Source of the DNA: a virus
Lineage: Duplodnaviria; Caudoviricetes
DNA length: 64,000 bases
IMG/VR virus record: IMGVR_UViG_3300044726_000026
Location: 464-64,463 of that record
Direction: 5' to 3' (one strand)
This document shows, one piece after another, positions 1-58,993 of the stretch. The stretch's first letter is position 1. The number at the start of each line of letters is the position of its first letter. The position numbers were made by a program, and so were the translations under genes. Under the pieces are notes generated by a model that saw only the letters and a list, made by a program, of their open reading frames with translations, was not told the DNA's origin and ran no database searches.

Positions 1-2519
1 CATGTTGCACGGTCCCCGGCACGCCAATCCGGCTCCAAAAACCGCATAACCGCGCCGATGTGCTGCGCGGCGCGCTGGTCGTACTTGGTCGGATCGCGGC
101 CTAGAGCGCGTTCCCAGAGTTCTTTGGCGCAGGTGTAGGTGCGGAGTACAAGGTTGTCGTCGTCCTCGAATTTCGCATCGGCGTCCTCGGCATCGGTCCA
201 GCCGGATTTGGAACAGGCGACCGGCACGGGTGCATCAAGCCACGTCTGTACCGTGCCCGCGTCGGCCTCGGCGGCGTTCTCGATCAGGTGTCGAGCCTGA
301 GTGGTCGTGTGTTCCGTCTCTGCCGCGTCGGTCAGGTGCAGCGGCAGGAGGCCGGTGTTGCTCTCGCGTGCGAGGCGGCGGTATTCGGCCACGGCTTCGG
401 CGAAGAGTTGATCGCGATGCTCGGCCAGCCAATCCACGTCGATCTGCTGCTCGCCGCACTGGATCGGCCAGATGCGACGGTGCTTGCCGCGCAGGAAGTT
501 GGTGTCGTTGGTCGTGCCGATCATAATGAACTGGCGCGGTATGCGCTGGGGATCTGGCCGATACGACAGGCGAACGGTATCCACGGTCCCCGACAGCATG
601 GCCTTGATCGCCTCATCGTCCTGTGCGCGGCGAAAGTGCGTCATTTCGCTGTTTTCCACGAACCAAAAGCCCAAAGTGGCCTCGACGAACCTCTTTTTGT
701 CATCAAAATGACCTTCGGTTTCACCCGACCAGCGAGCCGATCCCCAGATCATTACGAAAGTGGACTTACGCAAGCCCTGTGGGCCGACCAGAACCGGCAT
801 GAAATCGAACTTCACCCCCGGCTCATAGATGCGCGCGACAGCGGCTAGCATGGTGTTTCGCGAGGTCTGTCGGTAATAGGACGTATCCTGGGTATGACAG
901 CCTTGTATCCAGACGGTATCAATGCGCGATACTCCATCCCAGGTGAGGCTATCGAGGTAATCTCGTACCGGATGAAACTTGTTTTCACCGCAAACGATAG
1001 AAACGGCTTCGCGAACGTCACGTTGGGCGACCTGAAGACCCCATCCGGTCTTTTTCGGGCCGCGCGGTGCGCTCAATATCTGTCGGATTGCCCCGAAATG
1101 TATGGCTTCGATCATTAGTTCGGTCTGACCGCGTGGAATGCGGTGATTTATGCGAAGTGACTTCGAGCGGAGCGGCTTGACGAGGCAGTCCATGTGGGAG
1201 AACTCGTTGTGGCCGAACCGACCGGCGAAGCTGCGACCGTTCCGGAGGATCAGGATGATGTTGGCGATGGTATTCTTGATAATCCCGTCGGCGTTCAGGT
1301 CGAGGCCGTCCATCCAGCCGCGAGGATCGGACAGGTCGTCGTCATCCTCCACGGAAGTAACTTCCACGCCAGCCTCTTCGTCAGTGACATCGAAGCTGTC
1401 GTCGATATCGGCTTGTGAAAGCCCGTAATGGCTATCGCGCAACACCCGCATGAACTCTTCGTTCTCGCGAAGCATCTCGACCATGGCCTTGAAGGCGGGC
1501 ATCTTGCGTGGATCGTCACCGATCTCGCGTGTCCCGTTCAGATGGCCGAACAGGTGGGTCATGGTCATGTCCCACGAGTTGAAGTTCTGGTCCGATAGAG
1601 GGTCGGACGAGTGGTGGGAGTGGGCTTTATGCCCGCCGTCATAGACGACCATACCGTTCGAGCCGGTGCCTTTGGTATAGGTATAGCGGGCCGGTATGCC
1701 ATTAGGCCCCATCTCACCCGGCACGTAGGGCAGATCGAACTCAATTATGGCCTGATGAATGTCCCAAAGATTACAGAAAGCCCCGACGTGACCACGCTTG
1801 GTCAGAGGGTCCGCGCTGCGCGCTACGTCCGCGCGTAGGCGGTCCTGCTCGCGCTCAGAGCGCGGCAGGTTACGGAAATCAGACCAGTCACCCCACGCCG
1901 AGGCCCAATTCGAGAGGATGCGATCTACGTCGAGCATCGGGCCTTGATGGTGGATGAATACCGGCTCGATATCCGCGCAATGGGACGGCCAGTACATGTA
2001 TTGGGAGGGCTTGAAGGAGACGGGATCGACCATACGCATGTCGGGATCAATGGCTTCCGCGAGTATGCGCGACAGAGGATTGAACCGATCCTCTGGAAGT
2101 AACTTCGGCAGGGGGATCACCAGCCGGAGTTTGACGGCTCCTTTCCCGTGCGTGCGGGTGGAATAGGCGAGGTATTCACACGCCCCGACCCCGCTGGTGC
2201 CGTCGCGAAGGTCGTTTATCAGGGCATTACTGCCCTGGTCGATATCGAAGGTGAGTAGTTGTCTTGGTCGGGCGTTGATCTTGTGGCGGATACCGCCCTT
2301 GAACTGCGCGCCGACAAAGTAGCCGTTGTTTTTGCGGAGGGCTTGCCAGTCTTTCGACTTGCTGGTAAATTCTGCTAACGTGAGAGGGTCGGCATCGGAC
2401 AGCTTGGCTCGCTCACGAAATTCCAGCCATGTCCAAACCATATTTTTGACGTAGCGTTGGGACTTGCCCTCGCTGATAGCGAAGCGCAGCAATAGGCGGT
2501 CGTTCACTGTCGCTAGCAT
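1..2519 (-). CDS. primase/helicase with C-terminal VapE/VirE-like P-loop ATPase domain (3' end outside the window)
   Basis: Not in the ORF track, apparently because it has no stop in the window. Manual translation from ATG at 2519 gives MLATVNDRLLLRFAISEGK...LLTFDID (prim-pol-like), Walker A VGPQGLRKST, and RQFIMIGTTNDTNFLRGKHRRIWPI typical of VapE/VirE. Divergent from the replication block. Confidence 0.85.
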   Translation of the reverse strand, partial: MLATVNDRLLLRFAISEGKSQRYVKNMVWTWLEFRERAKLSDADPLTLAEFTSKSKDWQALRKNNGYFVGAQFKGGIRHKINARPRQLLTFDIDQGSNALINDLRDGTSGVGACEYLAYSTRTHGKGAVKLRLVIPLPKLLPEDRFNPLSRILAEAIDPDMRMVDPVSFKPSQYMYWPSHCADIEPVFIHHQGPMLDVDRILSNWASAWGDWSDFRNLPRSEREQDRLRADVARSADPLTKRGHVGAFCNLWDIHQAIIEFDLPYVPGEMGPNGIPARYTYTKGTGSNGMVVYDGGHKAHSHHSSDPLSDQNFNSWDMTMTHLFGHLNGTREIGDDPRKMPAFKAMVEMLRENEEFMRVLRDSHYGLSQADIDDSFDVTDEEAGVEVTSVEDDDDLSDPRGWMDGLDLNADGIIKNTIANIILILRNGRSFAGRFGHNEFSHMDCLVKPLRSKSLRINHRIPRGQTELMIEAIHFGAIRQILSAPRGPKKTGWGLQVAQRDVREAVSIVCGENKFHPVRDYLDSLTWDGVSRIDTVWIQGCHTQDTSYYRQTSRNTMLAAVARIYEPGVKFDFMPVLVGPQGLRKSTFVMIWGSARWSGETEGHFDDKKRFVEATLGFWFVENSEMTHFRRAQDDEAIKAMLSGTVDTVRLSYRPDPQRIPRQFIMIGTTNDTNFLRGKHRRIWPIQCGEQQIDVDWLAEHRDQLFAEAVAEYRRLARESNTGLLPLHLTDAAETEHTTTQARHLIENAAEADAGTVQTWLDAPVPVACSKSGWTDAEDADAKFEDDDNLVLRTYTCAKELWERALGRDPTKYDQRAAQHIGAVMRFLEPDWRAGDRAT

Positions 2520-2587
2520 GGGTTCACCTATTGGATGTTTCGACGCTGGGTTCGGTCCAGTTCAGGCTGGACTAAATTTAGTCCGAT

Positions 2588-2617
2588 TTGACAATTCGGA
2601 ACCGTGAAGCATATACT
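2588..2617 (+). promoter_or_regulatory. sigma70-like promoter for the replication operon
   Basis: TTGACA-N18-TATACT in the AT-richer divergent gap. Confidence 0.6.
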
Positions 2618-2674
2618 TTCAACTGCCCACGAGTCAAATTGTGAGCAAATATCCGCAGCAAAAAGGAAAGACCA

Positions 2675-3058
2675 ATGCTCGAAGATTTATTGCGTTCGCT
2701 CATCGCTGCTCTCAACGCCAATACCGAGGCGTTGGGCGGTAAGCCGACGGCGGGAAAAGATGCGGTCGCCAAGATCGCGGCGGTCGCCACCGCTGCGGCT
2801 GCGGCGGCGGCTCCCGCGAAGAAGGCAACCCCGTCCGCCGACAAGCCGACGATGGAAATGGTCAAGGCGGCACTCATGGCCGTTAAGGATGCTCACGGTC
2901 GCCCAGCGGCGATGAAGATCGTCAAGGAAGAGGGCAACGCGACCGAGATGCCGGGTATCAAGCCGCCACGCTTCGCGGCGGTCCTCGCGGCCTGTGCGGC
3001 GATCATGGAACCGGAAGACGCCGAGGAGGAAGAGGTCGCGGAAGAGGACGACCTGTAA
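2675..3058 (+). CDS. Ala-rich hypothetical protein with acidic C-terminus (Chi-like replication module)
   Basis: AAAGGAAAG RBS; position before the DUF2800 gene. Confidence 0.75.
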   Translation: MLEDLLRSLIAALNANTEALGGKPTAGKDAVAKIAAVATAAAAAAAPAKKATPSADKPTMEMVKAALMAVKDAHGRPAAMKIVKEEGNATEMPGIKPPRFAAVLAACAAIMEPEDAEEEEVAEEDDL

Positions 3059-3063
3059 GTCAC

Positions 3064-3098: not shown

Positions 3099-3117
3099 AC
3101 CAGAAGGAAGTAACTTC

Positions 3118-4545
3118 GTGGCAAAACAACAAAAAACCACGCCGGAAACCCGCACCGAACAAATCAACCGCCTGATCCGCGAATATGGACTTGATCGTGC
3201 TGGACATTCGCTGTTTTCGCCCTCATCTTCAGCGGGTTGGCTGAATTGCAAGGGGTTCTTGCTGGCCAACGCCAAGAAGGGCGATATGGCTGGGTACGAT
3301 GCGGCCTATGGGACGGTCGGGCACGCGATAGCGGCGGAATGGCTGTTGGTCATACGCGAGTCGGGTAAGACGGTAGCCGAGACGGTCCCAGACAAGTATC
3401 TCGGCAGGGTCATCGAAGAGCGCGGCTTTACTGTCGAGGTCGATGACACGATGCTGATGCACATCAGGCGGTATATCGACTGGTGTGAAGAGGTCGAATT
3501 ACTAGGCGATGTCTTCATCGAGCATCGCGTTGACTACTCCGAATACATGCCGATCCCCAATCAGGGCGGTACCGCCGACCATTTCGTCTGCATATACCCT
3601 ACCGCCACCACTCCTGGCACGCTCATCATCACGGATCTGAAGATGGGTATGCTGCGTGTTGACGTGGACGAGAACAGTCAGGCGCTCCTGTATGCGTTGG
3701 GCGTCTATCTGGAGTGGAACTGGTTCTACAAGTTCGAGAAGATCATCATCCGCATCTGTCAGCCACGCCTGGACAGCTTCCGGACGTGGGAGTGCGACAG
3801 CGCATACCTCCTGGCCTTCGGGGAGCGCGTGAGGATCGCCGCTGACGCCGCGTGGCAGGAGAATGCACCCCGGTCGCCAAGCCAGAAGGCGTGCCAGTGG
3901 TGTGCGGATGTGGCCTGTCCCGCTCGGTCGAAGCTGCTGGAAGACCTCGCGGATGACACGTTTGACGATGAGGATGTCATCAGCGGGAAGTCACTTCCAG
4001 AATACACGGCGGAAGAACTGGATGAACATGCGAACAGACCAAAGGAGGGAGGCGATATGTCGGAGATCACGCCTCGGTTCTCACACGACGTAGAGACGGC
4101 GTTGATGGTGTGGCGTTTCCGCCAGAAGGCGCTCGTGATGAAGTTCTTCGACCAGATCGAAGCCGAGTTGCTACGGCGGGCCTTGGCGGGCGAAGACCTC
4201 GTGTTCTTCAAGCCCGGTAATGGTCGGAAGACCCTGGAGTGGTTTGATCCAGACAGTGCCGCGCTGACACTGGCAGAGTGTGGCGTTCCGGAAGATAAGA
4301 TATTCGTCACGGAAGTTACTTCCCCGAGCAAGGCCAGAGATGCATTGCGAATTACGGGTATGAAGCCGAAAGAAATACAAGGCTTGTTCTACGGTGGTGA
4401 AAACCCGGATGATGGGGAGCCGGAGATGGGCCTTGTGAAAGAAAATCTGGGCAAGATCAAATTAGTCCCCGTGAGGTCCAGATCGGTTGACGTGCGTATC
4501 GCGGCGGACGAAGCGTTCGAGGACGCTACTGAGGACGAAGTGTAA
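3118..4545 (+). CDS. DUF2800 PD-(D/E)XK (Cas4/RecB-like) exonuclease
   Basis: HSLFSPSSSAGWLNC, YGTVGH, GGTAD...IITDLKMG, QALLYALG, CQWC...CPAR. Confidence 0.85.
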   Translation: MAKQQKTTPETRTEQINRLIREYGLDRAGHSLFSPSSSAGWLNCKGFLLANAKKGDMAGYDAAYGTVGHAIAAEWLLVIRESGKTVAETVPDKYLGRVIEERGFTVEVDDTMLMHIRRYIDWCEEVELLGDVFIEHRVDYSEYMPIPNQGGTADHFVCIYPTATTPGTLIITDLKMGMLRVDVDENSQALLYALGVYLEWNWFYKFEKIIIRICQPRLDSFRTWECDSAYLLAFGERVRIAADAAWQENAPRSPSQKACQWCADVACPARSKLLEDLADDTFDDEDVISGKSLPEYTAEELDEHANRPKEGGDMSEITPRFSHDVETALMVWRFRQKALVMKFFDQIEAELLRRALAGEDLVFFKPGNGRKTLEWFDPDSAALTLAECGVPEDKIFVTEVTSPSKARDALRITGMKPKEIQGLFYGGENPDDGEPEMGLVKENLGKIKLVPVRSRSVDVRIAADEAFEDATEDEV

Positions 4546-5303: not shown

Positions 5304-5318
5304 GAAGTTACTTCCGTC

Positions 5319-7457: not shown

Positions 7458-7640
7458 ATGTGGTGGCGTGTTGATTGGTGTGAGGCAAACTCTCTTCAGC
7501 GGACGCGCAGGGAGTACATCGAGGCGGAAGACATCGGGGAAGTCTTCCGCGAGGTCGCCAAGATAACTTTTCTGTCCGACATGCACGGTTCCGCGTATGT
7601 GGATCGGGTAGCGGAACCGCCGGAAGAATATCGGAAGTAA
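7458..7640 (+). CDS. hypothetical protein
   Basis: Fills the gap between pol and MTase; its stop lies inside a palindrome copy. Confidence 0.55.
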   Translation: MWWRVDWCEANSLQRTRREYIEAEDIGEVFREVAKITFLSDMHGSAYVDRVAEPPEEYRK

Positions 7641-7645
7641 CTTCC

Positions 7646-8257: not shown

Positions 8258-8868
8258 TCGACGCGGGTATCTCTACCGGACTATCGTTCGCGGCACTTCG
8301 CGAGGCCAACCGAGAAAGGTGCCCGCTGTTCAAGAATGCCAAAGGCGAGACGGCGCACAGTGGCGCGGATTGGAACTCGGAGGATTGGATGGTCGCGATC
8401 CTGGGGGAACTCGGGGAGGCGTCCAACATCCTGAAGAAAATCCGTCGGGGCGATTTCACCGTGGAAGAGATGCACGATCCGCTGGCCCGAGAGTTCTCCG
8501 ACACGATCATCTACCTCGACCTGATGGCGATGCAGTTGGGGTTCGAAACCTACAAATACGACTTCGCCCAGCTACGGCTGTTCACGAAGAAGAACGTCCC
8601 GCCGGGACAGAGTTTGAACCAACTCATGGTCGGCGCGTTCTTTCACGCGGGCACGATGGTTGGTCATTTGAGCCTTCCTCGTGACAATGTTCGTTTCGAG
8701 GCAAGACTTGTCACAGGTATCCATTGGGTGTTATACTACGTGGATCGGTTGGCGGATTGTTGCGGGATAAATCTCGACGAAGCCGTCAAGCGAACCTTCA
8801 ACATGAAGAGCCGACAACTGGACCTCCCGCTGTTCCTGACGGACGGGGGGCCGATCCGCGAGAAGTAA
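8254..8868 (+). CDS. MazG-like nucleotide pyrophosphohydrolase
   Basis: ILGELGEASNILKK...LAREFSDTIIYL; ATGA overlap with the MTase stop. Confidence 0.75.
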   Translation: MIDAGISTGLSFAALREANRERCPLFKNAKGETAHSGADWNSEDWMVAILGELGEASNILKKIRRGDFTVEEMHDPLAREFSDTIIYLDLMAMQLGFETYKYDFAQLRLFTKKNVPPGQSLNQLMVGAFFHAGTMVGHLSLPRDNVRFEARLVTGIHWVLYYVDRLADCCGINLDEAVKRTFNMKSRQLDLPLFLTDGGPIREK

Positions 8869-8889
8869 CTTCCAAAAACGGAGAGCCAA

Positions 8890-9746: not shown

Positions 9747-11252
9747 ATGCCAGGAAGTAACTTCCACCAAACACTGGTTCAGCGGCGCTCCTTTGCGCGA
9801 CGCTGTTCGAACGATCTCCACGAATATCAGAGTAAACTCGCGATCCCTTTCCTCATGGATAACCCGTTCAGCGCGGCGTTCATGGACATGGGCCTCGGGA
9901 AAACTGTCGCGATCCTGACTGTCCTGCAACGCCTGTTCACGAGAGGACAGATCAACAAGGTTCTGATTATCGCTCCGCTACGTGTAGCCGTGCAGACATG
10001 GCCGCTCGAACTCAAGGAGTGGTCGCATACATGGTGGATGACCTACACCCTCATCCGCGCCAACGAACGCCACCCCGGTCTGCTAGACGCTCAATCGCAA
10101 GCGCGCAAGGCCAACCCACTCGCAGCCAACCACGCATCCGGTAAGGCCAAGACCGCTCATATCGAATTGCAGCGGCGGGAACTGGCCTCACAACCAACCA
10201 TGATCCACATCATCAACCGGGAAGCCGTCGATTGGCTGGTGAAGTTCCACGGCAAGAACTGGCCGTACGACACGGTGATCGTGGACGAGAGCAAAAACTT
10301 CGCCGACAAGAACGCCGCCCGATGGAAGGCGCTGAACAAGGTGCGGGCGTTTATGACGCGGATGCACCTGTTGAGCGGGGTACCCGCGCCCGAAGGGATC
10401 GAGAACTACTTCGCGCAGATTTACCTTCTGGACCGGGGTGAACGCTTCGGCAGGAGCCTGACCGCGTTCCGCGAGAACTACATGATCCACCAGCCCTGGC
10501 AACACCGTTGGATACCTCGCGACGGCGCGGCGCTTCAGGTCGCGAACAAGATCAAAGACCTCTGCATCGTCATGCGGGAAGAGGACTTCCTGAAGCGGGA
10601 CAAGGCCATCGTCATCGAGCGACCCATCCTGCTTGAACCGGATGAACTCGGGCTGTACGAAGAGTTTGAACGAACCATGATCCTCGATCTGCCCGAAGCC
10701 GAGATCGAAGCCAAGAGCGGCGGGTCGCTGGCCGGGAAGTTACTTCAGATGGCGAGCGGCGCGGTCTACGACGAAACCGGGGTGTGGCATCACATCCACG
10801 ATCACAAGATCGAGGAACTGAAGGAGTTGGTCGCTGAGTCGCAGGGGTCGCCGCTGTTGGTGGCGTACTGGCACCGGTCTTCGCTGGAGCGGTTGCAGAA
10901 GGCTTTCCCCAAGGCGATCAAGATGGATCGCGAGGGGCGGTGTGTGAAGCCGTGGAACGAGGGCAAGATCAAGATGCTCTTGGTGCATCCGCGTAGCGCC
11001 GGTCATGGCCTGAACATGCAGCACGGTCCCGGCCATATCCTGATATGGTTTGACAATCCGATGCCTTTGGATGATTATTTGCAGATGAACAAACGCCTTG
11101 ATCGACCAGGGCAGAAGAAGATCGTCCGTGTCTACCATCTGGTCGCCAGGGATACTGTTGACGCTACTGTCGTACCGGTCCTGCGCGGAAAGGATGACGC
11201 CCAGGATGCGGTGAAGAAATACATCCGCGATCTCAGAGGGAAATGGAAGTAA
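9747..11252 (+). CDS. SNF2/SF2 helicase
   Basis: MDMGLGKT, VIVDES, SAGHGLNMQ, QMNKRLDRPGQ. Confidence 0.9.
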   Translation: MPGSNFHQTLVQRRSFARRCSNDLHEYQSKLAIPFLMDNPFSAAFMDMGLGKTVAILTVLQRLFTRGQINKVLIIAPLRVAVQTWPLELKEWSHTWWMTYTLIRANERHPGLLDAQSQARKANPLAANHASGKAKTAHIELQRRELASQPTMIHIINREAVDWLVKFHGKNWPYDTVIVDESKNFADKNAARWKALNKVRAFMTRMHLLSGVPAPEGIENYFAQIYLLDRGERFGRSLTAFRENYMIHQPWQHRWIPRDGAALQVANKIKDLCIVMREEDFLKRDKAIVIERPILLEPDELGLYEEFERTMILDLPEAEIEAKSGGSLAGKLLQMASGAVYDETGVWHHIHDHKIEELKELVAESQGSPLLVAYWHRSSLERLQKAFPKAIKMDREGRCVKPWNEGKIKMLLVHPRSAGHGLNMQHGPGHILIWFDNPMPLDDYLQMNKRLDRPGQKKIVRVYHLVARDTVDATVVPVLRGKDDAQDAVKKYIRDLRGKWK

Positions 11253-11258
11253 CTTCCA

Positions 11259-15958: not shown

Positions 15959-15982
15959 CCTCGTTTTTGGAAGTAACTTCCG

Positions 15983-16306
15983 ATGTATGATCCTCTCAAC
16001 ACCCGTCTCCCGCTGCTCCATTCCGGCATGAGCATCGCGCTCCGTGATACTTTTGACGCGGACGACGACATTTGGGTTCCGTTGGAATATGGCGGCGTAA
16101 GCTGTCGGGCCAATGCTCTCGGCTCGCTCCCGTCTCACGCTCGCATCCCGGTGCTTAATGGTGGATTGACTTTATCCCCGGCCCAGATCACGGCGATCAA
16201 TCCCGGCTCGGCAAATCTACTCGGGTTGGAAAATCAATCCGGTAATTGGGAGTGGGAAAACGGCAGTCCCGTGACATGGCCGGAAGGGGGCACTCCGAAT
16301 GCCTAA
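15983..16306 (+). CDS. hypothetical (probably virion) protein
   Basis: Fills the gap after portal; overlaps the next start. Confidence 0.6.
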   Translation: MYDPLNTRLPLLHSGMSIALRDTFDADDDIWVPLEYGGVSCRANALGSLPSHARIPVLNGGLTLSPAQITAINPGSANLLGLENQSGNWEWENGSPVTWPEGGTPNA

Positions 16307-42842: not shown

Positions 42843-42889
42843 ACCCTGGAAGTTACTTCCGCTATAATCACCCCAAAGGAATAAACCCC

Positions 42890-43736: not shown

Positions 43737-43762
43737 GAAGTAACTTCCACGGAGGAACCGCG

Positions 43763-44473: not shown

Positions 44474-44483
44474 AGTAACTTCC

Positions 44484-45080: not shown

Positions 45081-45167
45081 TGCTTGTGGATAACACTTTA
45101 CAGGAAGTTACTTCTCGTGTATTCTACGAAATGTTCGACGCTTGGTTTTTTTGACGCGGATAAACTT

Positions 45168-45365: not shown

Positions 45366-45394
45366 TTGCCATACGAATGACGCTATGGTAATAT
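45366..45394 (+). promoter_or_regulatory. candidate promoter of the PEP-CTERM pair
   Basis: TTGCCA-N17-TAATAT with a TG extension. Confidence 0.4.
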
Positions 45395-45432
45395 TTCTCT
45401 GCGTCAAAATTGCGACAACCCAGGAGGCTCCA

Positions 45433-48408: not shown

Positions 48409-48453
48409 TTGCGAGGCGACAGTATAGCACGGCGGGCCGAGGAAGTAACTTCC

Positions 48454-48631: not shown

Positions 48632-48997
48632 TCAGATCCCCAGGTCGTGGGCGCGGATGCGAGCACTGAAGCGGTCGTGCCATTTGATTTTGGAAGTAAC
48701 TTCTTTGACCGTCGTCTTCGGCGGTCGGGTCTTGTCGGTGTCTCCGATCTCCGCGCCGACGATCAGCGCGGGACCGGCGAACAGACCTTGACCGCAGCCG
48801 GGTAGTTCGAAGAAGTCTTCGAAGAGGAACAAGCCCTCGTCGTTTACGTAGACGGTATCGCCCTTGTGGTACCCGGCGAGGCAGAAGGTGTCGTGACCGT
48901 CGCTGTCGGAGACAGCCCTGCCGATGGATCGGAAGCCATCGGGGCATTCAACCGCGCTCACGCTACGGTCGATTGGGTTGATGTGGATCGCTTTCAT
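48632..48997 (-). CDS. DUF3846-like hypothetical protein
   Basis: MKAIHINP, VYVNDEGL, FAGPALIVG; start placed downstream of the promoter. Confidence 0.65.
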   Translation of the reverse strand: MKAIHINPIDRSVSAVECPDGFRSIGRAVSDSDGHDTFCLAGYHKGDTVYVNDEGLFLFEDFFELPGCGQGLFAGPALIVGAEIGDTDKTRPPKTTVKEVTSKIKWHDRFSARIRAHDLGI

Positions 48998-49349
48998 GCT
49001 GATGTCCTTTCTGTTTTCCAGCATGTATATTATCCCACAACGCAGCATGTATGTCAAGTTGAAGTGGAAGTGACTTCCGCCGCTTCCCTCTGACGATCTC
49101 GCTGATGCGTCCCTCGCTGTTAAGCCCGTGGGCATGAGCGATCTGGCTCATCGTCATGTGAGGAAAGTTCTCGTACATGTAGATGATGGACTTACGCATC
49201 TGGGGAGATATGCGCCGACTGACCGAGGGCGCACGCTTCAGCGGTGATCGGTTGTGCATCTCTTTACGCAGCACCGTTAGCCTGTCCGCCAACGCGCCGA
49301 CGACCTTAATCATGTCGTCCAGTTCCCGGCGCATATCATCCTTTGTCAT
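48963..49349 (-). CDS. HTH DNA-binding protein
   Basis: MTMSQIAHAHGLNSEGRISEIVRGK; GGAGG RBS. Confidence 0.65.
   Translation of the reverse strand: MTKDDMRRELDDMIKVVGALADRLTVLRKEMHNRSPLKRAPSVSRRISPQMRKSIIYMYENFPHMTMSQIAHAHGLNSEGRISEIVRGKRRKSLPLQLDIHAALWDNIHAGKQKGHQHESDPHQPNRP
49029..49057 (-). promoter_or_regulatory. sigma70-like early promoter
   Basis: TTGACA-N17-GATAAT on the minus strand. Confidence 0.75.
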
Positions 49350-49481: not shown

Positions 49482-49785
49482 GTGGTTTTTCCTCCACGAC
49501 TTCCGGTGGCGGTGGTGCTGGCGGCTGTGCCAACTGATCCGCCGACAGCGGGAAGTTACTTCCAAGCCAGACGTTCCGCAACTTCTCGACGGCGGAACAC
49601 ATGCACCACAGGTCGAGGCCGACTCCCGGCCCGCCGTAGTGTCTGACGGCATCGGCATAGGTGCCGTCCAGCGGCACGGTATCCTTCAGCCAACGACGCT
49701 GACCATTGTCCGCGATCAGAACCTCGTCGATTGCCTTGGACATACGTTGTAGTTGACGCGGTAGGTCTTTTTCGGTAGCCATCAT
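49459..49785 (-). CDS. hypothetical protein
   Basis: AGGAG RBS; tightly packed in the minus-strand operon. Confidence 0.55.
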   Translation of the reverse strand: MMATEKDLPRQLQRMSKAIDEVLIADNGQRRWLKDTVPLDGTYADAVRHYGGPGVGLDLWCMCSAVEKLRNVWLGSNFPLSADQLAQPPAPPPPEVVEEKPHEVPEPS

Positions 49786-49997: not shown

Positions 49998-50002
49998 GGA
50001 AG

Positions 50003-50734
50003 TCACTTCCTTCTGAAAACATTCATCACGCGGAAACGGTGATTGGTTGACTTGACGATGCCCACCACCCCGATCAGGTCGAAGGTATCCTTGCGCCACA
50101 TGGGCAATACCTGATCGAGCCACACGACATGCGCCCCGGCGGGCAACCGGGCCAGTGCTACCAGCACCTTGTTACGCTTGACCATGGAGGTCTGATAGTG
50201 TTCCGCGTCCTCGACCGAGTACGGCGGGTCAGCCAACACGAGATCGTACCGGTCTAGCGGCACGTCCTCCAGGGTGTGCGCGTCGTCGGCGTAGTGTCTG
50301 GACCCTGACGTGTGGACGGACTCCGCAGCCAAGCTGATGTCCACTGTGTCCCCTGGAAACTTTTCGAGGTCTACGTGACCAGAGAACAGGTGCAGCGTGC
50401 GTTGCTTGTCGCGGAACAGAGCGCGGACACGCTCAAGGTAGGTGGCCGGGTACCCGCCGTAGAACTGGCTCTTGACGCGGTAGTCATTGCCCATGATCCA
50501 CGTCCCGACCAGACGCCCATCGGCTGAGATGAAGATGGCGTCGGGATAGCCGGTTTCGAAGCGGTAGTTCTCGATGCGGTCGGCCCAGCCCCACGGGTCG
50601 AACGGCGGGTCACGATTGACCAGCCGTGCGAGGTCCGCCGAGAGGGCTGTCGCCACGGTACGTGCCGCGCCGCCTGTCACGGGTCCGATCAGCCGTTCTC
50701 TGAGCCACTGGTACGCCTCATGCTGATCCATCAA
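50003..50734 (-). CDS. orphan amino (N6A/N4C) DNA methyltransferase
   Basis: LHLFSG SAM-binding-like motif; LVLADPPY. Confidence 0.75.
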   Translation of the reverse strand: MMDQHEAYQWLRERLIGPVTGGAARTVATALSADLARLVNRDPPFDPWGWADRIENYRFETGYPDAIFISADGRLVGTWIMGNDYRVKSQFYGGYPATYLERVRALFRDKQRTLHLFSGHVDLEKFPGDTVDISLAAESVHTSGSRHYADDAHTLEDVPLDRYDLVLADPPYSVEDAEHYQTSMVKRNKVLVALARLPAGAHVVWLDQVLPMWRKDTFDLIGVVGIVKSTNHRFRVMNVFRRK

Positions 50735-50920
50735 TCATGCCTCGGCGTCGGAAGTTACTTCTGCTGGTCTAACTATCCAGCCTTGAGCCATTAGCTTCTC
50801 CCGGCTCTCCTTGGTGTTGGGCATCTGTTTGAGCGCCACCAATCGGCTCCATGCGCCCTCTTCCGATACGAACTTGTTGGCCCAGGTCAGACCGTATCGG
50901 GTGACTACTTTGTATTGCAT
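50735..50920 (-). CDS. hypothetical protein
   Basis: MQYKVVTRYG...; GGAG RBS. Confidence 0.5.
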   Translation of the reverse strand: MQYKVVTRYGLTWANKFVSEEGAWSRLVALKQMPNTKESREKLMAQGWIVRPAEVTSDAEA

Positions 50921-50987: not shown

Positions 50988-52220
50988 TTAGAGTTCGCCG
51001 GTAGCCGGTTCGGCAATGCCGAGTGCCCGCAGATCAGGGGCATCGTCACCTTCCTTCTCGTTGTCGTCATCGTCCTCGGACAGATCGTCTTCGTCATCGT
51101 CCGGGCCGAGTTCGTCATCGACAGACGCGGCGGGCTTTTTGCCGGCGGTCTTCGCGGCTTTCGCTGCTGCCTTCTCGGCAAGCACCTTGGCCGCAGCCTC
51201 GTCTTCCGCCGCCAGTTCATCGACTGTCTTCGCCCGCTGGATTTTGACCTCGAACGAGATGTCGGAGACGGCGATCTTTTTCTTGGGCGAGCGGGTGCCC
51301 TTGAACCAAGTCTCGTCGTCTTCGATCAGCGGCATGAACTTCTCCACGTCCTCGTAGAGAAATTCAACACCCTCCTTGACCGCGAAGTTCATCCGCGTGG
51401 TGGCCATCATGTTGCGCGGCGGCTTCTCCCCGTTGGCTTCGAGGGTCTTCCGCGTCAGCTTGTCGACTTTCTTCTGCTCATTCTCAGCCGCACGGGCGTC
51501 GGCCTTCGCGAGAGCGTCCATGATCTTCTGGCCGGTGGGGTCTTTGCGAAGCTGTGCAATCGCCTCATAGGCCGCGATCCGGTTGTCGCGGATCGCATCA
51601 CGCACGCCCTTCGGTGCGTTGATGATCGTCTTCAGGTCGCGAACGTGCTTGTTCGTGACACCAAGGCGGGCGGCGATATCGTCGTCGTCCATGCCGGTCT
51701 TCATCATGCGGTTGGCAAGGACGGCACGCTCCAAGATCGTCGGACGAACGCCGGTGTTCTCTTTCCACAGAGACACCGCCAGATCCATGTCAGACGATCC
51801 CGGCTTCTTCATCACGACAGGCAGACGGGAGATGTCCGCCCCTTCGCTCGCCGCCAACATGGCGGCTTCGTACCGGCGATGGCCCGAGATCAGAGCCAAC
51901 TTGGCTTCACCACCAAACTCGGCGGGGAACACACCGAGCGGCTGGGTGTCGTAGAAGCCCTCCATTTTCATGGCGTCGGCCAGTTCACGGATGCCGTCCT
52001 TGTACTCCTGGGTATCCGTCACACGCAGGTTGAACCCAGGCACCACGGTAATGCCGTCGAGGTCAACCATGTACAGCTTGCCGGTCTTGGTCGCACCGGA
52101 GTAGGCGAGTGCATCCCCGGACGTACTGGGGTCGAACTCGATCATCTTCATACTCACCCGGTTGGGTGGAGGGGCTTTCGCCCTCGGCGCTTTGGCCGCA
52201 GCTTTTGCTTGTTTTGCCAT
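50988..52220 (-). CDS. ParB-like protein A (N-domain, HTH, acidic C-terminus)
   Basis: PGFNLR, LISGHRRYEA, ENTG, HTH MDDDDIAARLGVTNKHVRD; start set at 52220 because the longer ORF overlaps its promoter. Confidence 0.85.
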   Translation of the reverse strand: MAKQAKAAAKAPRAKAPPPNRVSMKMIEFDPSTSGDALAYSGATKTGKLYMVDLDGITVVPGFNLRVTDTQEYKDGIRELADAMKMEGFYDTQPLGVFPAEFGGEAKLALISGHRRYEAAMLAASEGADISRLPVVMKKPGSSDMDLAVSLWKENTGVRPTILERAVLANRMMKTGMDDDDIAARLGVTNKHVRDLKTIINAPKGVRDAIRDNRIAAYEAIAQLRKDPTGQKIMDALAKADARAAENEQKKVDKLTRKTLEANGEKPPRNMMATTRMNFAVKEGVEFLYEDVEKFMPLIEDDETWFKGTRSPKKKIAVSDISFEVKIQRAKTVDELAAEDEAAAKVLAEKAAAKAAKTAGKKPAASVDDELGPDDDEDDLSEDDDDNEKEGDDAPDLRALGIAEPATGEL

Positions 52221-52309: not shown

Positions 52310-52336
52310 GTCAGTTGGTGAAGTTACTTCCGAAAA

Positions 52337-52771: not shown

Positions 52772-52787
52772 GGGAAGTTACTTCCTC

Positions 52788-53346: not shown

Positions 53347-53398
53347 CTGGTTTCCTCGGAAGTTACTTCCGACCGAAAGGGATTTTCGATCGTCAGAA

Positions 53399-53534: not shown

Positions 53535-53811
53535 AACACGGACGCGGGCTTCACGCATGGGCGGGGGTTCTCTCGCCGGGGACGCTCGCTCGCGTGTGCA
53601 TGTGCGCGTACGCAAGCGTGTGCGGGTACCCACGGGTACACGTGATGGCGCATGACCCTACGTGTGGGTACGCGTACGCGCGTGCGAGATCGTGTAGCGT
53701 GCGCGCATGACAACGCGCGTGATACGCGCCCGGTTTTCATGTGATCGCGATCCGCGCGAGCGCATGTGTCGGCTGAAGTCACTTCCACCGTGTTGTGGGG
53801 CAAAACATGGC

Positions 53812-53840
53812 TTGACATACATTTTGCAGGGTAGTATGCT
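53812..53840 (+). promoter_or_regulatory. sigma70-like early promoter (rightward)
   Basis: TTGACA-N17-TATGCT. Confidence 0.8.
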
Positions 53841-53914
53841 TGCTGACGGTCGAAAACCGACCGAGTTCCTCGGCAAATGGCCGAGGAAGTAACTTCCAAG
53901 CGGAGCAAAAAATC

Positions 53915-54109
53915 GTGGCTCATAACGTCGAATACGCCGTCAAGGGCACCAAGCTGGTCATCACGATGGACATCAGTCCCGCGTCGATCAACGCGGCCCC
54001 GCCGTCCCAGACCGGCAAGACCAATTTGGTCGCGTCCACTGGCGGTTCGGTGAAGGTTGACGGCAAGGACGGTTTGTCCTTCTCGGTCAACCTGATGCAG
54101 AAGAAGTAA
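53915..54109 (+). CDS. small conserved hypothetical protein
   Basis: GTG start; PSQTGKTNLVASTGG. Confidence 0.7.
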   Translation: MAHNVEYAVKGTKLVITMDISPASINAAPPSQTGKTNLVASTGGSVKVDGKDGLSFSVNLMQKK

Positions 54110-54157
54110 CTTCCACTTTGGCGGGGCTTCGGCCCCGCCGCATCGGAGCAAATCGAA

Positions 54158-54358: not shown

Positions 54359-54540
54359 TGGCACAGGTCAGTCAGGATACCTTGCGGATCGACATTCTCC
54401 GCGAGGCGCGGGACCGCTATCTGGCGGTACGCAACATGCACCACGTCACCAATGCGGAGGCGTCGTTGTGCAGTCTGAAAATCGCCGAATGCGAGGCGAT
54501 GTTGCGCGAACTGCTGGAAATTCCAGCCGACGCGCCGTGA
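54358..54540 (+). CDS. hypothetical protein
   Basis: TAATG coupling to the previous gene. Confidence 0.55.
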   Translation: MAQVSQDTLRIDILREARDRYLAVRNMHHVTNAEASLCSLKIAECEAMLRELLEIPADAP

Positions 54541-54568
54541 AGTAACTTCGACAACAGGAGCAAAACCA

Positions 54569-54866: not shown

Positions 54867-55154
54867 ATGAGAATGGCCGTGACTGAAACCTACGAGGAAA
54901 CCCTCATCAACTACGTCTGGTTCATCGAGTTCGAACGGGTGGAGGGTGGGGTGAAGTTACTTCGCAACTACCGCCTCCGGTTCAACAATCCCGACCGGCC
55001 CACGTCCCTCGGCGCGGGCCACACCATCGAGCGGACGGACGGCTCGCGTATCGTGGAGTCGGTCGAGATCGTCCCCTACAAGACCAACAAAAAAGAGGTC
55101 CACAAGGTCGTCAATCCGAAGCACGTCTTCTCCTACGAGAGCGAGGCGAACTGA
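54867..55154 (+). CDS. hypothetical protein
   Basis: AGGAG RBS. Confidence 0.6.
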   Translation: MRMAVTETYEETLINYVWFIEFERVEGGVKLLRNYRLRFNNPDRPTSLGAGHTIERTDGSRIVESVEIVPYKTNKKEVHKVVNPKHVFSYESEAN

Positions 55155-55233
55155 CCGGTTTCGCGGACGGTTGCCGGGGCTACGGCCCCGGCAACAGCCT
55201 GGGAAACCCAGGAAGTTACTTCCACCAACAGAT

Positions 55234-55262
55234 TTGACATACACTCCGCGTGGTGGTAGTAT
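55234..55262 (+). promoter_or_regulatory. sigma70-like early promoter
   Basis: TTGACA-N17-TAGTAT. Confidence 0.7.
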
Positions 55263-55532: not shown

Positions 55533-55585
55533 GAAGTAACTTCGGCGGCGGGGCTTTTCCCGCCGCCGCTCTAGGAGCAACACAA

Positions 55586-56044: not shown

Positions 56045-56283
56045 GAGGCTACCGGCTGTACTGGTGTACCTACTGGCGGCGCTACTTGGATACCATGCCG
56101 CCTCTGGTCATCTTCGTCGCCACGGACGGCACGGCTTATGCCGCTGCCGATCCGATGAAGTTACTTCGGCAGAAGCGCCTTGGGAAAGCGCCGAAGCCGA
56201 AGGCGGTTCGACCGAAACGTCACCGGTTCGTGAAGCCGAAGATACCGAAGCCAACCCATGAAGCGCCCCGGAGGGCACAATGA
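56041..56283 (+). CDS. basic hypothetical protein
   Basis: GTGA and ATGA overlaps with neighbours. Confidence 0.45.
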   Translation: MRGYRLYWCTYWRRYLDTMPPLVIFVATDGTAYAAADPMKLLRQKRLGKAPKPKAVRPKRHRFVKPKIPKPTHEAPRRAQ

Positions 56284-56636: not shown

Positions 56637-56967
56637 CAAGGCGAAGGACATGATCCGCGCCGTCGTCGAGAAGGCGATTGCTGACGGTGCGATACCCGTT
56701 GAGGAAATCCCCGCCGTTCGGAAGTTACTTCCGAAGACGACGGCAATTCGTAAGCGCACCGGGCCGAGTGCGGGGGCCACGTACGTCGATGACAATTTCG
56801 GCGTCTACGAAATCCGCGATGGCGATGATGTGCAGTTCTACTTCGCGATGCAACGCAAGTCGGTGCTGAAAACCTGCGTAGACTGCGGTCGCAAGGTCCG
56901 CATCAGCCCCGACTACGAGTGCTGCAATTCCTGCGCCGATGCCCGTGAGAGGGGCTGGGGCGGCTAG
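56623..56967 (+). CDS. zinc-ribbon hypothetical protein
   Basis: CVDC...CNSC; GGAGGA RBS. Confidence 0.6.
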   Translation: MSQGNKAKDMIRAVVEKAIADGAIPVEEIPAVRKLLPKTTAIRKRTGPSAGATYVDDNFGVYEIRDGDDVQFYFAMQRKSVLKTCVDCGRKVRISPDYECCNSCADARERGWGG

Positions 56968-56993: not shown

Positions 56994-57062
56994 TGGCAAG
57001 ATCGGAATGAAGGCCGGGGGTTCCGATCCGGAAGTTACTTCCCCGGCCCAGGAGCAAAACTA

Positions 57063-57521: not shown

Positions 57522-57859
57522 CCTTTCGAATTTCGCCAAAGCCCGCCAAGAATACGGGTGGGTACCAGCAGGCGGTGTACCTGAAACGGACGCTAGAAGC
57601 CGGGGGGTGGGAGGCCGCGCTCGAACAGCGCGGCGCGACGCCCGAGCATAACGTGCTGATGTCCGCCGTGTGGGCAATCGCCTTCCCGCGTGAGGGCGTG
57701 ACCAAGCTGTCGTACGAGAACCACGAAATCACGTTCGACTACACGTTCAAGCCCACGCAGAAAATGTCCATCGAGGTCGATGGCTTTCCGATCTCGTGGC
57801 ACATCGTCGCGTTGAAGATCATGCTGCTCGATGACGATGAGGAAGTTACTTCCCCATGA
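57518..57859 (+). CDS. hypothetical protein
   Basis: ATGA overlaps. Confidence 0.6.
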   Translation: MTFRISPKPAKNTGGYQQAVYLKRTLEAGGWEAALEQRGATPEHNVLMSAVWAIAFPREGVTKLSYENHEITFDYTFKPTQKMSIEVDGFPISWHIVALKIMLLDDDEEVTSP

Positions 57860-58059
57860 AGATGCACCCATCAGTCACCCTGGATCGTGTCGTTGCCGCC
57901 GTGCGGCGCTACAACGAGACGACCGACAACCCAGGCATCTGCATCGCTTGCGGGGCCGACGCCGAGGATGTCGAGCCTGATGCCCGTGCCTACGAGTGCG
58001 ACCATTGCGGTTCTCATCGCGTCTACGGCGCGGAAGAACTGCTGATGATGCTGGCATGA
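57856..58059 (+). CDS. zinc-ribbon protein
   Basis: GICIACG...VEPDA..YECDHCG...VYGAEEL. Confidence 0.7.
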   Translation: MKMHPSVTLDRVVAAVRRYNETTDNPGICIACGADAEDVEPDARAYECDHCGSHRVYGAEELLMMLA

Positions 58060-58394
58060 AGTTACTTCTCCTGGTCGTGGCGCTCGCCACGACCAGTTGC
58101 GCGTCGAGGCAGTACGTCTCGACGTGCTCATCCATACCGGGGCAGAACCCGGCCTATTTCGAGGCATTCGATAAGCAATGGGGATCTGACACACGCCACA
58201 GCGCCGGGTACCTCGACGCCGTGGCGCAGGAGAAGGCCGGGAACTGTTCCGCCGTGTTCGACTACCTGAACCCCGGCTACCGGCAAACCGAGGCGTACAG
58301 CGCCGAACTACGCGGCGCGCTTCGCAGTGCCTACGAGACAGACCTGGCTCTGGCTCCGTGGTACTACTACCGCTACCGTCCCTATCACCGCTAA
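58056..58394 (+). CDS. putative lipoprotein
   Basis: MKLLLLVVALATTSC lipobox-like signal. Confidence 0.6.
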   Translation: MKLLLLVVALATTSCASRQYVSTCSSIPGQNPAYFEAFDKQWGSDTRHSAGYLDAVAQEKAGNCSAVFDYLNPGYRQTEAYSAELRGALRSAYETDLALAPWYYYRYRPYHR

Positions 58395-58411
58395 CAACAG
58401 GAGCAAAACCC

Positions 58412-58993
58412 ATGACCGAGATCGACGAGATCGTCGCGAATATCCCGCTTGCCGGGATGTCCTCGCGCGTCGCGTGCCGCCGAAAGGTGGAAGAACTGAT
58501 GGAAGGAGAAAACGAAACAATAAAAACCCAGGTGGTCGATGCCTTATGGGATCGCTACGTCGAGGGCTGGCCGCATGACCTGTTCGTCAAGCGGTTGCTG
58601 GAAGTTACTTCCGGCCAGAAGGTCGGTTGCATCCTGCGCGTCATGTTCAACGACCCGCGCCAGTACCAGCCGCGCTATGACCGTCAGGCGATCATCACGT
58701 CCGACGGGTACCTCATGTGCGGGTTCACGGACACGAAGGGGGACTATCACCCCGGCGCGTTTGTCGGTTCGGCGTTCGAACTGACGCGCAACCTGATCGC
58801 CGTTTGCGTGTTCGCCAAATTGAGCGGCGATGAAATCCTGGCGCTTGGGGACGCCGCTGATAGTTGGATCGGGACCGACTATCGGGCCGGGGCTTCGTAC
58901 CCGCCGAGGCTGGTCCTGAACACCGCCGAGAGCGAGCGCGCATCGCAAGAGGCGCTGGCCATCTATGGGGAGCATATGAAACCCCCAACTTGA
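58412..58993 (+). CDS. hypothetical protein
   Basis: AACAGGAGCAAAAC RBS. Confidence 0.65.
   Translation: MTEIDEIVANIPLAGMSSRVACRRKVEELMEGENETIKTQVVDALWDRYVEGWPHDLFVKRLLEVTSGQKVGCILRVMFNDPRQYQPRYDRQAIITSDGYLMCGFTDTKGDYHPGAFVGSAFELTRNLIAVCVFAKLSGDEILALGDAADSWIGTDYRAGASYPPRLVLNTAESERASQEALAIYGEHMKPPT

Follow-up and report, generated by a model that had tools for sequence, protein, structure and literature searches.

Introduction

Plasmid RK2 carries about 12 KorB sites, and Noc has tens of dispersed sites per chromosome. The stoperators of Cluster A mycobacteriophages and the C1 operators of phage P1 are dozens of 13-17 bp repressor sites spread genome-wide, many of them at gene junctions; these sites are asymmetric, transcription-oriented, mostly intergenic and somewhat degenerate, and they are read by an immunity repressor. 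HIP1 of cyanobacteria and the DNA uptake sequences of Neisseria and Haemophilus are exact words of 8-12 nt, present about once per kb in all frames and at tolerant positions, with enrichment at gene ends. Here we describe a palindrome, GAAGTWACTTC, that recurs throughout a phage genome (Duplodnaviria; Caudoviricetes). The DNA analysed, called the window below, comprises 64,000 nucleotides (bases 464-64463) of the 64,463-base IMG/VR virus record IMGVR_UViG_3300044726_000026, which CheckV rates as complete. Genes were called with our own ORF-based set with refined starts and annotated using Pfam and PHROGs, and the window proved to be a nearly whole siphophage genome with a coding fraction of about 91%. 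Its large terminase subunit (TerL) and the AH2 counterpart (Burkholderia phage AH2, Casjensviridae) share 59% identity, and the phage, which comes from soil, is Casjensviridae-like and related to Burkholderia phage BcepNazgul (Nazgul hereafter). A first-pass annotation of the same DNA had proposed that the palindrome is written into proteins in all three reading frames by selection at the nucleic-acid level; it put forward no function, and the junction half of the sites and the even spacing reported here lie beyond what it covered.

KorB of the IncP plasmid RK2 (PDB 8QA9, 8QA8) is described as having a 13-bp palindromic operator (OB) with a single centre base and as acting as a CTP-gated clamp that slides up to 1.5 kb from its site and silences promoters (PMC11790492), and the ParB fold is described as one that may bind CTP, ATP or GTP (PMC12704722). 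The phage resembles this system in combining, on a mobile element of about 60 kb, a predicted ParB-CTPase-fold protein with a helix-turn-helix (HTH) domain (the product of gene A, see below) and many scattered copies of an exact 13-bp palindrome whose centre base can vary, placed partly at promoters and partly at a distance from them; KorB is also the best structural match of the gene A model. Unlike the plasmid RK2, the phage has 69 sites (18-69 across its clade), half of them within coding sequence; a KorA-like clamp lock and an IncC/ParA partner were not found in the phage scans, and binding and CTP use by the gene A product are putative.

ParB-parS and Noc-NBS likewise consist of a palindromic site and an HTH dimer of the ParB fold, and Noc and ParB are the next-best fold matches of gene A. 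However, the phage has about one site per kb, compared with a handful to about 70 per several megabases, and lacks ParA, membrane-targeting evidence and origin clustering. The phage shares with the stoperators and the P1 operators the dozens of copies of one site across a whole phage, many at junctions, but its sites are palindromic, exact, evenly spaced, half intragenic and without orientation to genes, and Pfam and PHROGs scans of the window proteins gave no immunity repressor or integrase family. With HIP1 and the uptake sequences it shares an exact word about once per kb that enters proteins in every frame where the position is tolerant and that is enriched at gene ends; those words are a property of the host chromosome, whereas the palindrome is limited to one phage clade and is unenriched in two Burkholderiales genomes. 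Full-text literature searches (supplements not covered) returned no description of the motif or of such arrays in Casjensviridae.

Copies, exactness and spacing of the palindrome

The window contains 60 copies of GAAGTWACTTC and the full record 61; the mean count in 100 dinucleotide-preserving shuffles was 0.00. Allowing any centre base gave 69 perfect copies, about one per 1,000 bases: 60 with A or T at the centre (W-centre) and nine with C or G (S-centre). A single one-mismatch copy was found where 30 third-order Markov simulations predicted 1.6, and 11 two-mismatch copies where they predicted 19.9. With 69 perfect copies and near-copies at or below expectation, the sites are thus all-or-none, and the modest depletion of two-mismatch words fits near-sites being converted into sites. 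The form extended to a 13-mer by flanking G and C accounts for 39 of the 60 W-centre sites, and the sequence common to the copies spans just 11-13 bp.

The sites are spaced more evenly than random. The coefficient of variation of the gaps was 0.69 across the full set of 69 (p 0.0007) and 0.72 when the W-centre sites were taken by themselves (p 0.005). The centre base has no consistent orientation relative to genes. Ten W-centre sites in a row, between 56157 and 60259, carry T on the + strand (sense for this early region), and A and T are mixed elsewhere. The predicted RNA hairpin of the site is weak (-1.8 to -4.2 kcal/mol), and no compensatory stem variant was found in about 300 copies across the clade. 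In their exactness, free centre and weak hairpin, the sites behave like a protein recognition sequence.

Copy numbers in related phages were as follows.

G001, same species: 50 copies of the 11-mer
G015, partial, 30.9 kb: 33 copies
G002, complete, TerL 74% identical: 38 copies plus 8 of a 12-bp variant
G003, partial: 22 copies
G007: 26 copies
G008: 23 copies
G009: 19 copies
G006, the cultured Burkholderia phage BcepNazgul: 18 copies
AH2: 0 copies
G011, G012 and G014: 0 copies each
Pseudomonas phage SS2019XI, first 50 of 57.6 kb: 0 copies

GAAGTWACTTC is the top over-represented word in the motif-bearing related records. In a scan of IMG/VR, homology to the clade was found in all 46 loci with at least two sites and in 10 of 37 single-site loci; since every multi-site locus was homologous to the clade, the motif is a lineage trait. 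The gaps were still more regular in G002 (coefficient of variation 0.47, p below 5e-5) and similar to those of the window in Nazgul, G007 and G008 (about 0.72, p 0.07-0.13), and G009 showed no even-spacing trend (0.88, p 0.45).

A word of the host chromosome was considered and tentatively rejected on the two Burkholderiales genomes examined: those of Polaromonas and Rubrivivax hold 4 and 1 copies versus 10 and 2 of a control word and are unenriched. Among the matches listed in a 15-mer scan of 185,579 species genomes, the hits were scattered and near chance level, and no prophage relative turned up in those genomes. Two Hymenobacteraceae genomes (G018 and G019, Sabulibacter and Rufibacter; loci L023, L027 and others) contain the 11-mer 103 and 61 times versus 18 and 5 for the control word, mostly as pairs about 40 bp apart; these copies are probably an unrelated REP-like repeat.

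The palindrome within proteins and at gene junctions

The window encodes a replication module (VapE-type primase-helicase, DUF2800 exonuclease, Enc34-type single-strand-binding protein (SSB), family A DNA polymerase and SNF2 helicase), head genes of lambda type, a long tail module that includes BR0599 and DUF2793 proteins, accessory genes for two PEP-CTERM proteins and one beta-helix protein, and an early region made up of small genes. The sites lie in and between these genes as listed below, where phase is the reading phase of the site, followed by the peptide that it encodes.

1154-1164: S-centre (G), g1 primase-helicase, phase 2, SKSLR
1354-1364: W-centre (A), g1 primase-helicase, phase 0, EVTS at residue 386; common to G002 and G003
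2096-2106: W-centre (A), g1, phase 2, PKLLP; common to G002 and G003
3107-3117: W-centre (A), junction, 0 nt 5' of the g3 exonuclease start
3987-3997: S-centre (C), g3 exonuclease, phase 2, GKSLP; missing from relative L007
4312-4322: W-centre (T), g3 exonuclease, phase 0, EVTS; distant homologues DFVS, EMIS or KFIS
5304-5314: W-centre (T), junction, right after the g4 SSB stop, 4 nt 5' of the g5 PolA start; gap in L011
6128-6138: W-centre (T), g5 DNA polymerase A, phase 2, GKLLP
7634-7644: W-centre (A), junction, 1 nt 5' of the g6 start
8862-8872: W-centre (A), junction, TAA centre is the g7 stop, 17 nt 5' of g8
9754-9764: W-centre (A), g10 SNF2 helicase, phase 1, GSNF at residue 3
10736-10746: W-centre (T), g10 helicase, phase 2, GKLLQ; motif only in G002, G003, Nazgul and G009
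11246-11256: W-centre (A), junction, TAA centre is the g10 stop, 2 nt 5' of the small terminase subunit (TerS) start
12632-12642: W-centre (T), TerL, phase 1, GSYF
13075-13085: W-centre (A), TerL, phase 0, EVTS; distant homologues with gaps or other residues
14013-14023: W-centre (T), junction, 2 nt past the TerL stop
15970-15980: W-centre (A), junction, 11 nt past the portal stop, 2 nt 5' of ORF 15983-16306
18185-18195: W-centre (T), g16 S49 protease, phase 0, EVTS
19061-19071: W-centre (A), g16 protease, phase 0, EVTS; TQTP in G003
20236-20246: S-centre (C), junction, 5 nt past the g17 stop
21683-21693: W-centre (A), g19 DUF7443, phase 0, EVTS
22833-22843: W-centre (A), g21 gpZ-like, phase 0, EVTS; T centre in G002 and G003
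24564-24574: W-centre (T), g24 pre-tape-measure chaperone, phase 2, GKLLP
24687-24697: W-centre (T), g24, phase 2, AKLLP; ASRLS in G002, AKRLP in G003
25692-25702: W-centre (T), tape measure, phase 2, EKLLQ; EREKQ in G002
26878-26888: W-centre (T), tape measure, phase 0, EVTS
29256-29266: S-centre (C), tape measure, phase 2, RKSLP
30844-30854: W-centre (T), tape measure, phase 0, EVTS
32277-32287: W-centre (A), g26 tail protein, phase 0, EVTS
33982-33992: W-centre (T), g27 BR0599 protein, phase 1, GSYF; PAYV in G002
34494-34504: W-centre (T), junction, 5 nt past the g28 stop; kept in G002 with A centre
36526-36536: W-centre (T), g29 tail tip protein, phase 0, EVTS; KIVS in G002
37510-37520: W-centre (A), junction, 6 nt past the g29 stop, 2 nt 5' of the g30 start
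37862-37872: W-centre (A), g30 DUF2793, phase 0, EVTS
39728-39738: W-centre (T), junction, 11 nt past the g31 stop, 2 nt 5' of the g32 start
42849-42859: W-centre (T), junction, 6 nt past the g33 stop; kept in G002
43737-43747: W-centre (A), junction, right after the g35 stop, 15 nt 5' of g36
44472-44482: W-centre (A), junction, overlaps the g36 stop, 1 nt 5' of the g37 start
45104-45114: W-centre (T), intergenic, in the spacer of promoter-like site 45097-45125 ahead of PEP-CTERM gene g38
46172-46182: W-centre (T), PEP-CTERM gene g39 (start 46167), phase 2, MRKLLL
47315-47325: W-centre (A), beta-helix gene g41 (- strand), phase 0, EVTS
48442-48452: W-centre (A), 33 nt 5' of the g41 (- strand) start
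48693-48703: W-centre (A), g42 (- strand), phase 0, EVTS; common to G002
49067-49077: S-centre (G), 9 nt 5' of the g42 start, centre at -50 of promoter-like site 49057-49029
49552-49562: W-centre (T), g43 (- strand), phase 1, GSNF
49999-50009: S-centre (C), TGA centre on the - strand is the g44 stop
50751-50761: W-centre (T), 16 nt 5' of the g44 (- strand) start; missing from L213
50971-50981: W-centre (A), 6 nt past the stop of gene A; kept in G002
52320-52330: W-centre (T), about 169 nt upstream of gene A (start 52151), 6 nt past the g46 stop
52774-52784: W-centre (T), junction, 3 nt past the DUF7609 stop, 2 nt 5' of the g46 (- strand) start
53359-53369: W-centre (T), g47 (- strand), phase 1, GSNF; +28 of a promoter-like site
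53775-53785: S-centre (C), intergenic, -67 of promoter-like site 53812-53840
53886-53896: W-centre (A), g48, phase 1, GSNF
54103-54113: W-centre (A), TAA centre is the g48 stop; shifted by a few bases in G015
54539-54549: W-centre (A), overlaps the g49 stop, 19 nt 5' of g50
54953-54963: W-centre (T), g51, phase 2, VKLLR
55212-55222: W-centre (T), intergenic, -52 of promoter-like site 55234-55262
55533-55543: W-centre (A), right after the g52 stop
56157-56167: W-centre (T), intergenic
56721-56731: W-centre (T), g55, phase 2, RKLLP
57031-57041: W-centre (T), 21 nt 5' of g56, +36 of a promoter-like site
57842-57852: W-centre (T), g57, phase 0, EVTS close to the C-terminus
58058-58068: W-centre (T), ORF 58056-58394, phase 2, MKLLL
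58601-58611: W-centre (T), g59, phase 0, EVTS
59053-59063: W-centre (T), intergenic, +33 of promoter-like site 58990-59018
59601-59611: W-centre (T), 14 nt 5' of g61
60259-60269: W-centre (T), junction, 3 nt past the g62 stop, 1 nt 5' of the g63 start
60947-60957: S-centre (C), 224 nt upstream of gene B
60983-60993: S-centre (G), 188 nt upstream of gene B
63750-63760: the sole one-mismatch copy in the window, beyond gene B, belonging to an inverted repeat together with 60958-60995

Coding sequence fully encloses 35 sites of the 69, namely 32 of the 60 with a W centre and three of the nine with an S centre, and all three phases occur. Phase 0 yields EVTS (n=16) and phase 1 GSNF or GSYF (n=6); W-centre sites in phase 2 yield K-L-L (n=10, including MRKLLL of the PEP-CTERM gene and MKLLL of ORF 58056-58394), and all three S-centre coding sites, also in phase 2, yield K-S-L. 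An A centre in phase 2 would create a TAA stop and is found at gene ends only. The first-pass annotation had named as carriers the primase, nuclease, TerL, protease (twice), gpZ-like protein, tape measure, hub, DUF2793 and beta-helix proteins, as well as the two gene starts MRKLLL and MKLLL, and every detail that we checked held.

In the whole proteome, the motif encodes all 16 EVTS peptides, where amino-acid composition predicts 0.30, all six GS[NY]F and 8 of 11 KLL. The codon usage of the phage would spell EVTS in the motif's way in 0.8% of cases; the observed share is 16/16. The codons TTA, GTA and ACT had been called uncommon, and outside the motif they do account for just 1.5% of Leu, 10.1% of Val and 9.4% of Thr codons, respectively.

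Intergenic positions hold 28 of the 60 W-centre sites despite the coding fraction (p about 2e-16). Eleven sites are placed 0-5 nt 5' of a start codon, and eight of these (5304, 11246, 15970, 37510, 39728, 44472, 52774 and 60259) are also at most 11 nt from the upstream stop, so that the 13-mer is essentially the entire intercistronic spacer. Six junction sites overlap the stop codon of the upstream gene, and in four of them the site centre itself is the stop, TAA for g7, g10 and g48 and TGA for g44. The sites before start codons and those filling a spacer would suit an RNA or single-strand element, whose hairpin would mark gene starts for ribosome binding or for processing, or would signal priming of the lagging strand about every kilobase. 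The left arm of the site is one base off the consensus Shine-Dalgarno sequence, the spacing of about 1 kb resembles the length of Okazaki fragments, and the 12-bp variant of G002 preserves the stem and alters only the loop. Between 44.9 and 61.3 kb, 7 of 11 promoter-like sites have a palindrome centre at -75 to +50, an interval picked after inspection of the data, versus 2.6 expected (p 0.005).

Conservation and turnover of the sites

In relatives at 73-96% nucleotide identity, 99 aligned sites were common, four were found in the window only and three in the relative only; these counts are not independent, because the compared loci overlap each other. A neutral 10-mer at 80% identity would be expected to survive in about 11% of cases. 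BLAST alignments at about 70% identity still contained intact sites at 8 of 12 positions in G002 and 6 of 7 in G003, and the centre base switches between A and T at orthologous sites in both. At the protein level, alignable coding sites were common to G002 in 13 of 18 cases and to G003 in 9 of 13. The deep clades have one alignable site each in common with the window (Nazgul 1/14, G007 1/11, G008 1/14, G009 1/14), indicating that the copy number is kept while the positions turn over.

The columns of distant homologues contain DFVS, EMIS or KFIS in the nuclease and GHFF, GNYF, GDWF or GEYF in TerL, or gaps. Because homologous columns mostly hold other residues or gaps, the motif peptides are derived. 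Most coding sites align with substitutions in ungapped columns of equal-length homologues. The marks of REP/RPE-like in-frame insertion, namely insertions and an extra flanking repeat, were apparently absent from the alignments, which contained substitutions, 11-13 bp of shared sequence and one junction indel. In the helicase, the KLLQ peptide is conserved in all homologues, including that of AH2, and the motif is present or absent through synonymous codons only. The site in the CPHCG-S-YF stretch of TerL is absent from the closest relatives G002 and G003 and present at the same column in G007 and G008; it was gained convergently, at a position that is permissive.

Selection at the nucleic-acid level, as first proposed, is supported by the motif-only peptides, their codon spelling, the retention of sites in relatives and the A/T flips at the centre. 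The further suggestion that it alters essential proteins holds in that residues are changed; these changes are tolerated ones, since the altered residues lie in variable columns. Sites were also thought to mark acquired accessory genes. The PEP-CTERM and beta-helix genes do carry sites and have no homologue in eight compared genomes, which is consistent with acquisition as such. The adjacent PEP-CTERM pair (45385-46946) has sorting signals with Pfam E-values of 2e-6 and 4e-7 and homologues in 0 of the 8 phage genomes.

ParB/KorB-like genes and other candidate readers

Three genes are of interest as readers or neighbours of the sites.

50988-52151, - strand: ParB/KorB-like gene A (g45), 387 aa, candidate reader of W-centre sites (phrog_1033, E 7e-39)
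61171-62769, + strand: ParB/KorB-like gene B (g64), 532 aa, paralogue of gene A (phrog_1033, E 4e-28)
50003-50734, - strand: g44, putative small methyltransferase directly downstream of gene A (phrog_3816, E 1e-38; weak Pfam match to Rossmann methyltransferases)

The gene A product has weak Pfam matches to HTH_ParB, ParB_N and KorB, homologues with PF02195/PF17762, and an arginine-rich GHRR box in the N-terminal domain followed by an HTH domain. Its AF2 model (mean pLDDT 77) gave KorB of plasmid RK2 (8qa9) as the best Foldseek match (E 6.8e-11, TM 0.71 over the target), with Noc and ParB next, and the predicted fold is that of KorB/Noc/ParB. The gene B product is 25-28% identical to it over about 180 aa, with the GHRR box and the HTH aligned.

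Sites were found near the gene A homologue in 6 of 6 complete motif-bearing genomes. In the window, one site follows the stop by 6 nt and another precedes the gene by about 169 nt; the matching distances in Nazgul are 5 nt and 132 nt. A site follows the stop by 4 nt in G002 and by 271 nt in G008; in G009 a site precedes the gene by 87 nt, and in G007 two precede the longest ORF, by 160 and 224 nt. All three genomes with a gene B have centre variants ahead of it. There are two S-centre sites 188-224 nt upstream in the window and three 157-208 nt upstream in G015, the latter at the end of a run of nine sites, eight of them S-centre; in G002, the 12-bp variant lies 36 nt upstream, and 6 of its 8 copies fall within 2.6-7.4 kb, a region with a single 11-mer.

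The C-terminal third of gene B (62230-62770) consists of low-complexity, Ala/Lys-rich repeats of the AKAKA type, visible in the DNA and in the alignment. Gene B is flanked by G-rich repeats (60860-61030 and 63180-63920) and by a perfect 23-nt inverted repeat (61003-61025 / 63201-63223). The GC content of 60-64 kb is 0.648 versus about 0.59, and 61-64 kb is without any exact site; this region around gene B could be a separate module or the genome end. Just past the last W-centre site, a block of about eight tandem copies of a 27-bp repeat (60470-60696, core CCCACAGACGTAG) looks like iterons or a terminase-binding array.

Gene content was compared between six complete motif-bearing and three motif-free genomes by iterative profile searches (109 query proteins versus 6,569 ORFs; SS2019XI covered to 50 kb). 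No gene family was exclusive to the motif-bearing genomes, and a small clade-specific DNA-binding protein was rejected on this ground. Only TerS and the ParB-like protein were recognisable as sequence-specific DNA binders in all six. A g5-type PolA, the one family found in all six motif-bearing genomes but in neither AH2 nor G011, was rejected as a correlate because the motif-free SS2019XI has a 49%-identical copy, and primase hairpin signals were rejected because primase types differ within the motif-bearing set. ESM Atlas searches with DUF7609 and g2 gave no functional lead.

Some motif-free relatives carry repeats of their own. A direct repeat, AGGTCCGAAT, occurs in 9-10 copies near the cos ends of AH2 and in G011 (31.2-31.9 kb), and SS2019XI has four copies of a 16-nt repeat in a single intergenic block (L324, 39091-39220). 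They were rejected as ParB-type sites, being direct repeats near cos or confined to one intergenic block. An annotated 'cysteine dioxygenase' (Nazgul34, L295 18543-19340; AH2 gp18) has homologues in G007, G008, G009, G011 and SS2019XI and none in the window or G002; it is of interest as a possible DNA dioxygenase, considering that ParB-dependent thymine dioxygenases of phages have recently been described (PMC13229309).

Discussion

By analogy with KorB, the palindrome may represent docking and operator sites of the phage's own ParB/KorB-fold proteins. Under this proposal GAAGTNACTTC, usually extended to a 13-mer by G and C flanks, would be a cis-acting protein docking site of which about 70 exact copies are kept by selection. 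The most likely reader would be the product of gene A (50988-52151), whose dimer would bind through its HTH domain with one monomer per half-site, leaving the centre base free. After loading, a nucleotide-gated clamp would close and slide outward, and a site interval of about 1 kb would keep the entire genome in reach; the coating might silence, protect or organise the phage DNA. Sites at promoters and gene junctions would act as operators, and the gene B product may read a second 'dialect', the centre variants upstream of it, concentrated in the early region. In a genome that is 91% coding, a lattice that has to be even would have forced about half of the sites into genes, at tolerant protein positions and spelled with rare codons. 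The others would replace the intercistronic spacer, where the GGAAG arm could also bind the ribosome and the centre could supply the stop codon.

In favour of the proposal are the protein-site behaviour of the palindrome, its even spacing, its restriction to one phage lineage, the KorB/Noc/ParB fold of gene A, the lack of any other recognisable shared binder besides TerS, and the sites beside promoter-like sequences. Specific binding gains indirect support from the sites close to gene A in six of six complete genomes and from the variant sites ahead of gene B in three of three.

Two features of KorB/ParB-type systems are present, namely a ParB N-terminal domain (GxxR box) with an HTH and many copies of a palindrome of about 13-16 bp on the same replicon. 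Several observations nevertheless weigh against the docking proposal, and because of them we place it at about an even balance between right and wrong. ParB-like homologues also occur in the motif-free AH2, G011, G012 and SS2019XI, which have no over-represented palindrome, so the presence of the protein does not predict the array and does not track the sites across relatives. In trees of ParB, TerL and the helicase, the motif-free AH2/G011 clade is nested among motif-bearing clades, so that at least two gains or losses are needed. No recognition-helix residue separating motif-bearing from motif-free ParB-like proteins was found, and the ParB-like proteins of the deep clades share only 24-32% identity with gene A even though their 11-mer does not differ. 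In the 12-bp variant of G002, the half-sites are moved by 1 bp, which a rigid dimer should not tolerate, barring a different reader, and G008 has an S-centre cluster with a single detectable ParB-like gene. Finally, no match to the ParA/CbiA or KorA families, and hence no ParA/IncC or KorA-like partner, was found among the 64 + 34 proteins scanned.

A different sequence-specific factor may read the sites instead, either a modifying or cutting enzyme of phage or host, for which they would be a target of methylation, hypermodification or nicking, or a nucleoid protein of the host, with ParB unrelated or a helper. We consider this unlikely, though it has points in its favour. Exactness together with an unconstrained centre base is typical of the palindromes that type II enzymes recognise, and motif-free phages retain ParB homologues. 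Two putative methyltransferases are encoded, g6 (phrog_24333) and g44, with sites between the latter and gene A, but both are restricted to the window's own subclade and absent from the motif-bearing Nazgul, G007, G008 and G009. Phage ParB homologues can activate DNA-modifying dioxygenases (PMC13229309), ParB-methyltransferase fusions are common in phages (PMC12704722), and EbfC/YbaB, a host protein, binds the motif core GTnAC irrespective of the centre base (PMC2665219). However, the dioxygenase-activating ParBs are described as lacking a DNA-binding domain (PMC13229309), unlike gene A, and no TET/JBP match was present among the window proteins scanned. In addition, no gene family is exclusive to the motif-bearing genomes, and AH2 and Nazgul both infect Burkholderia cepacia complex hosts and yet differ in the motif. 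A modification target alone would explain neither the even spacing nor the enrichment, and phages usually avoid restriction sites.

We regard as improbable that the copies are a by-product of mutational or repair drive, or a tiny selfish palindrome, spreading without serving the phage on the model of HIP1 or very-short-patch repair. The all-or-none sites without a halo of near-copies, the deficit of two-mismatch words, the relatives that differ by several bases together (for example at 33729 and 3987), the few EVTS sites that match gaps in distant homologues and the indel at 5304 would fit such a drive. It would not, however, produce spacing more even than chance; the sites stay intact over long divergence, most coding sites align with substitutions rather than insertions in equal-length homologues, and a candidate enzyme limited to the clade was not found. 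The RNA or single-strand element introduced above is very unlikely as well, given the weak hairpin, the lack of compensatory stem changes in the clade copies, the half of the sites that lie deep in genes in every phase without a nearby start codon, the variation of primase type between motif-bearing subclades and the occurrence of the shared polymerase type in the motif-free SS2019XI.

The proposal of docking sites for ParB/KorB-fold proteins can be carried further. Partner-less ParB/KorB clamps might coat the viral chromosome or gather it into a private compartment set apart from host DNA, the array thus forming a 'self-marking' lattice. Its two dialects, one per paralogue, would separate the early region from the remainder, and the demand for evenness would dictate amino acids in terminase, protease, polymerase and tail proteins and lead separate lineages to re-create a site convergently at one protein position. 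We offer this extension tentatively and consider it rather doubtful. New in the window are the extreme density of 69 sites, the protein imprint, the economy of stop and start codons at junctions, the convergent gain, the possible two dialects with two paralogues, and a cultured member of the clade. The docking proposal is directly testable in that member, BcepNazgul, with its 18 sites and ParB-like gene Nazgul29.

If the proposal is true, a protein family of segregation and plasmid control would have been turned into the whole-genome organiser of a virulent-type phage, by way of a cis code so dense that it shapes essential protein sequences. The array is among the clearest viral cases of non-coding selection overriding the choice of codons and amino acids, and the 11-mer provides a simple sequence marker for this phage clade. 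It also bears on how phages discriminate their own DNA from that of the host, on long-range silencing by sliding clamps and on the role of the orphan ParB genes that are common in phages.

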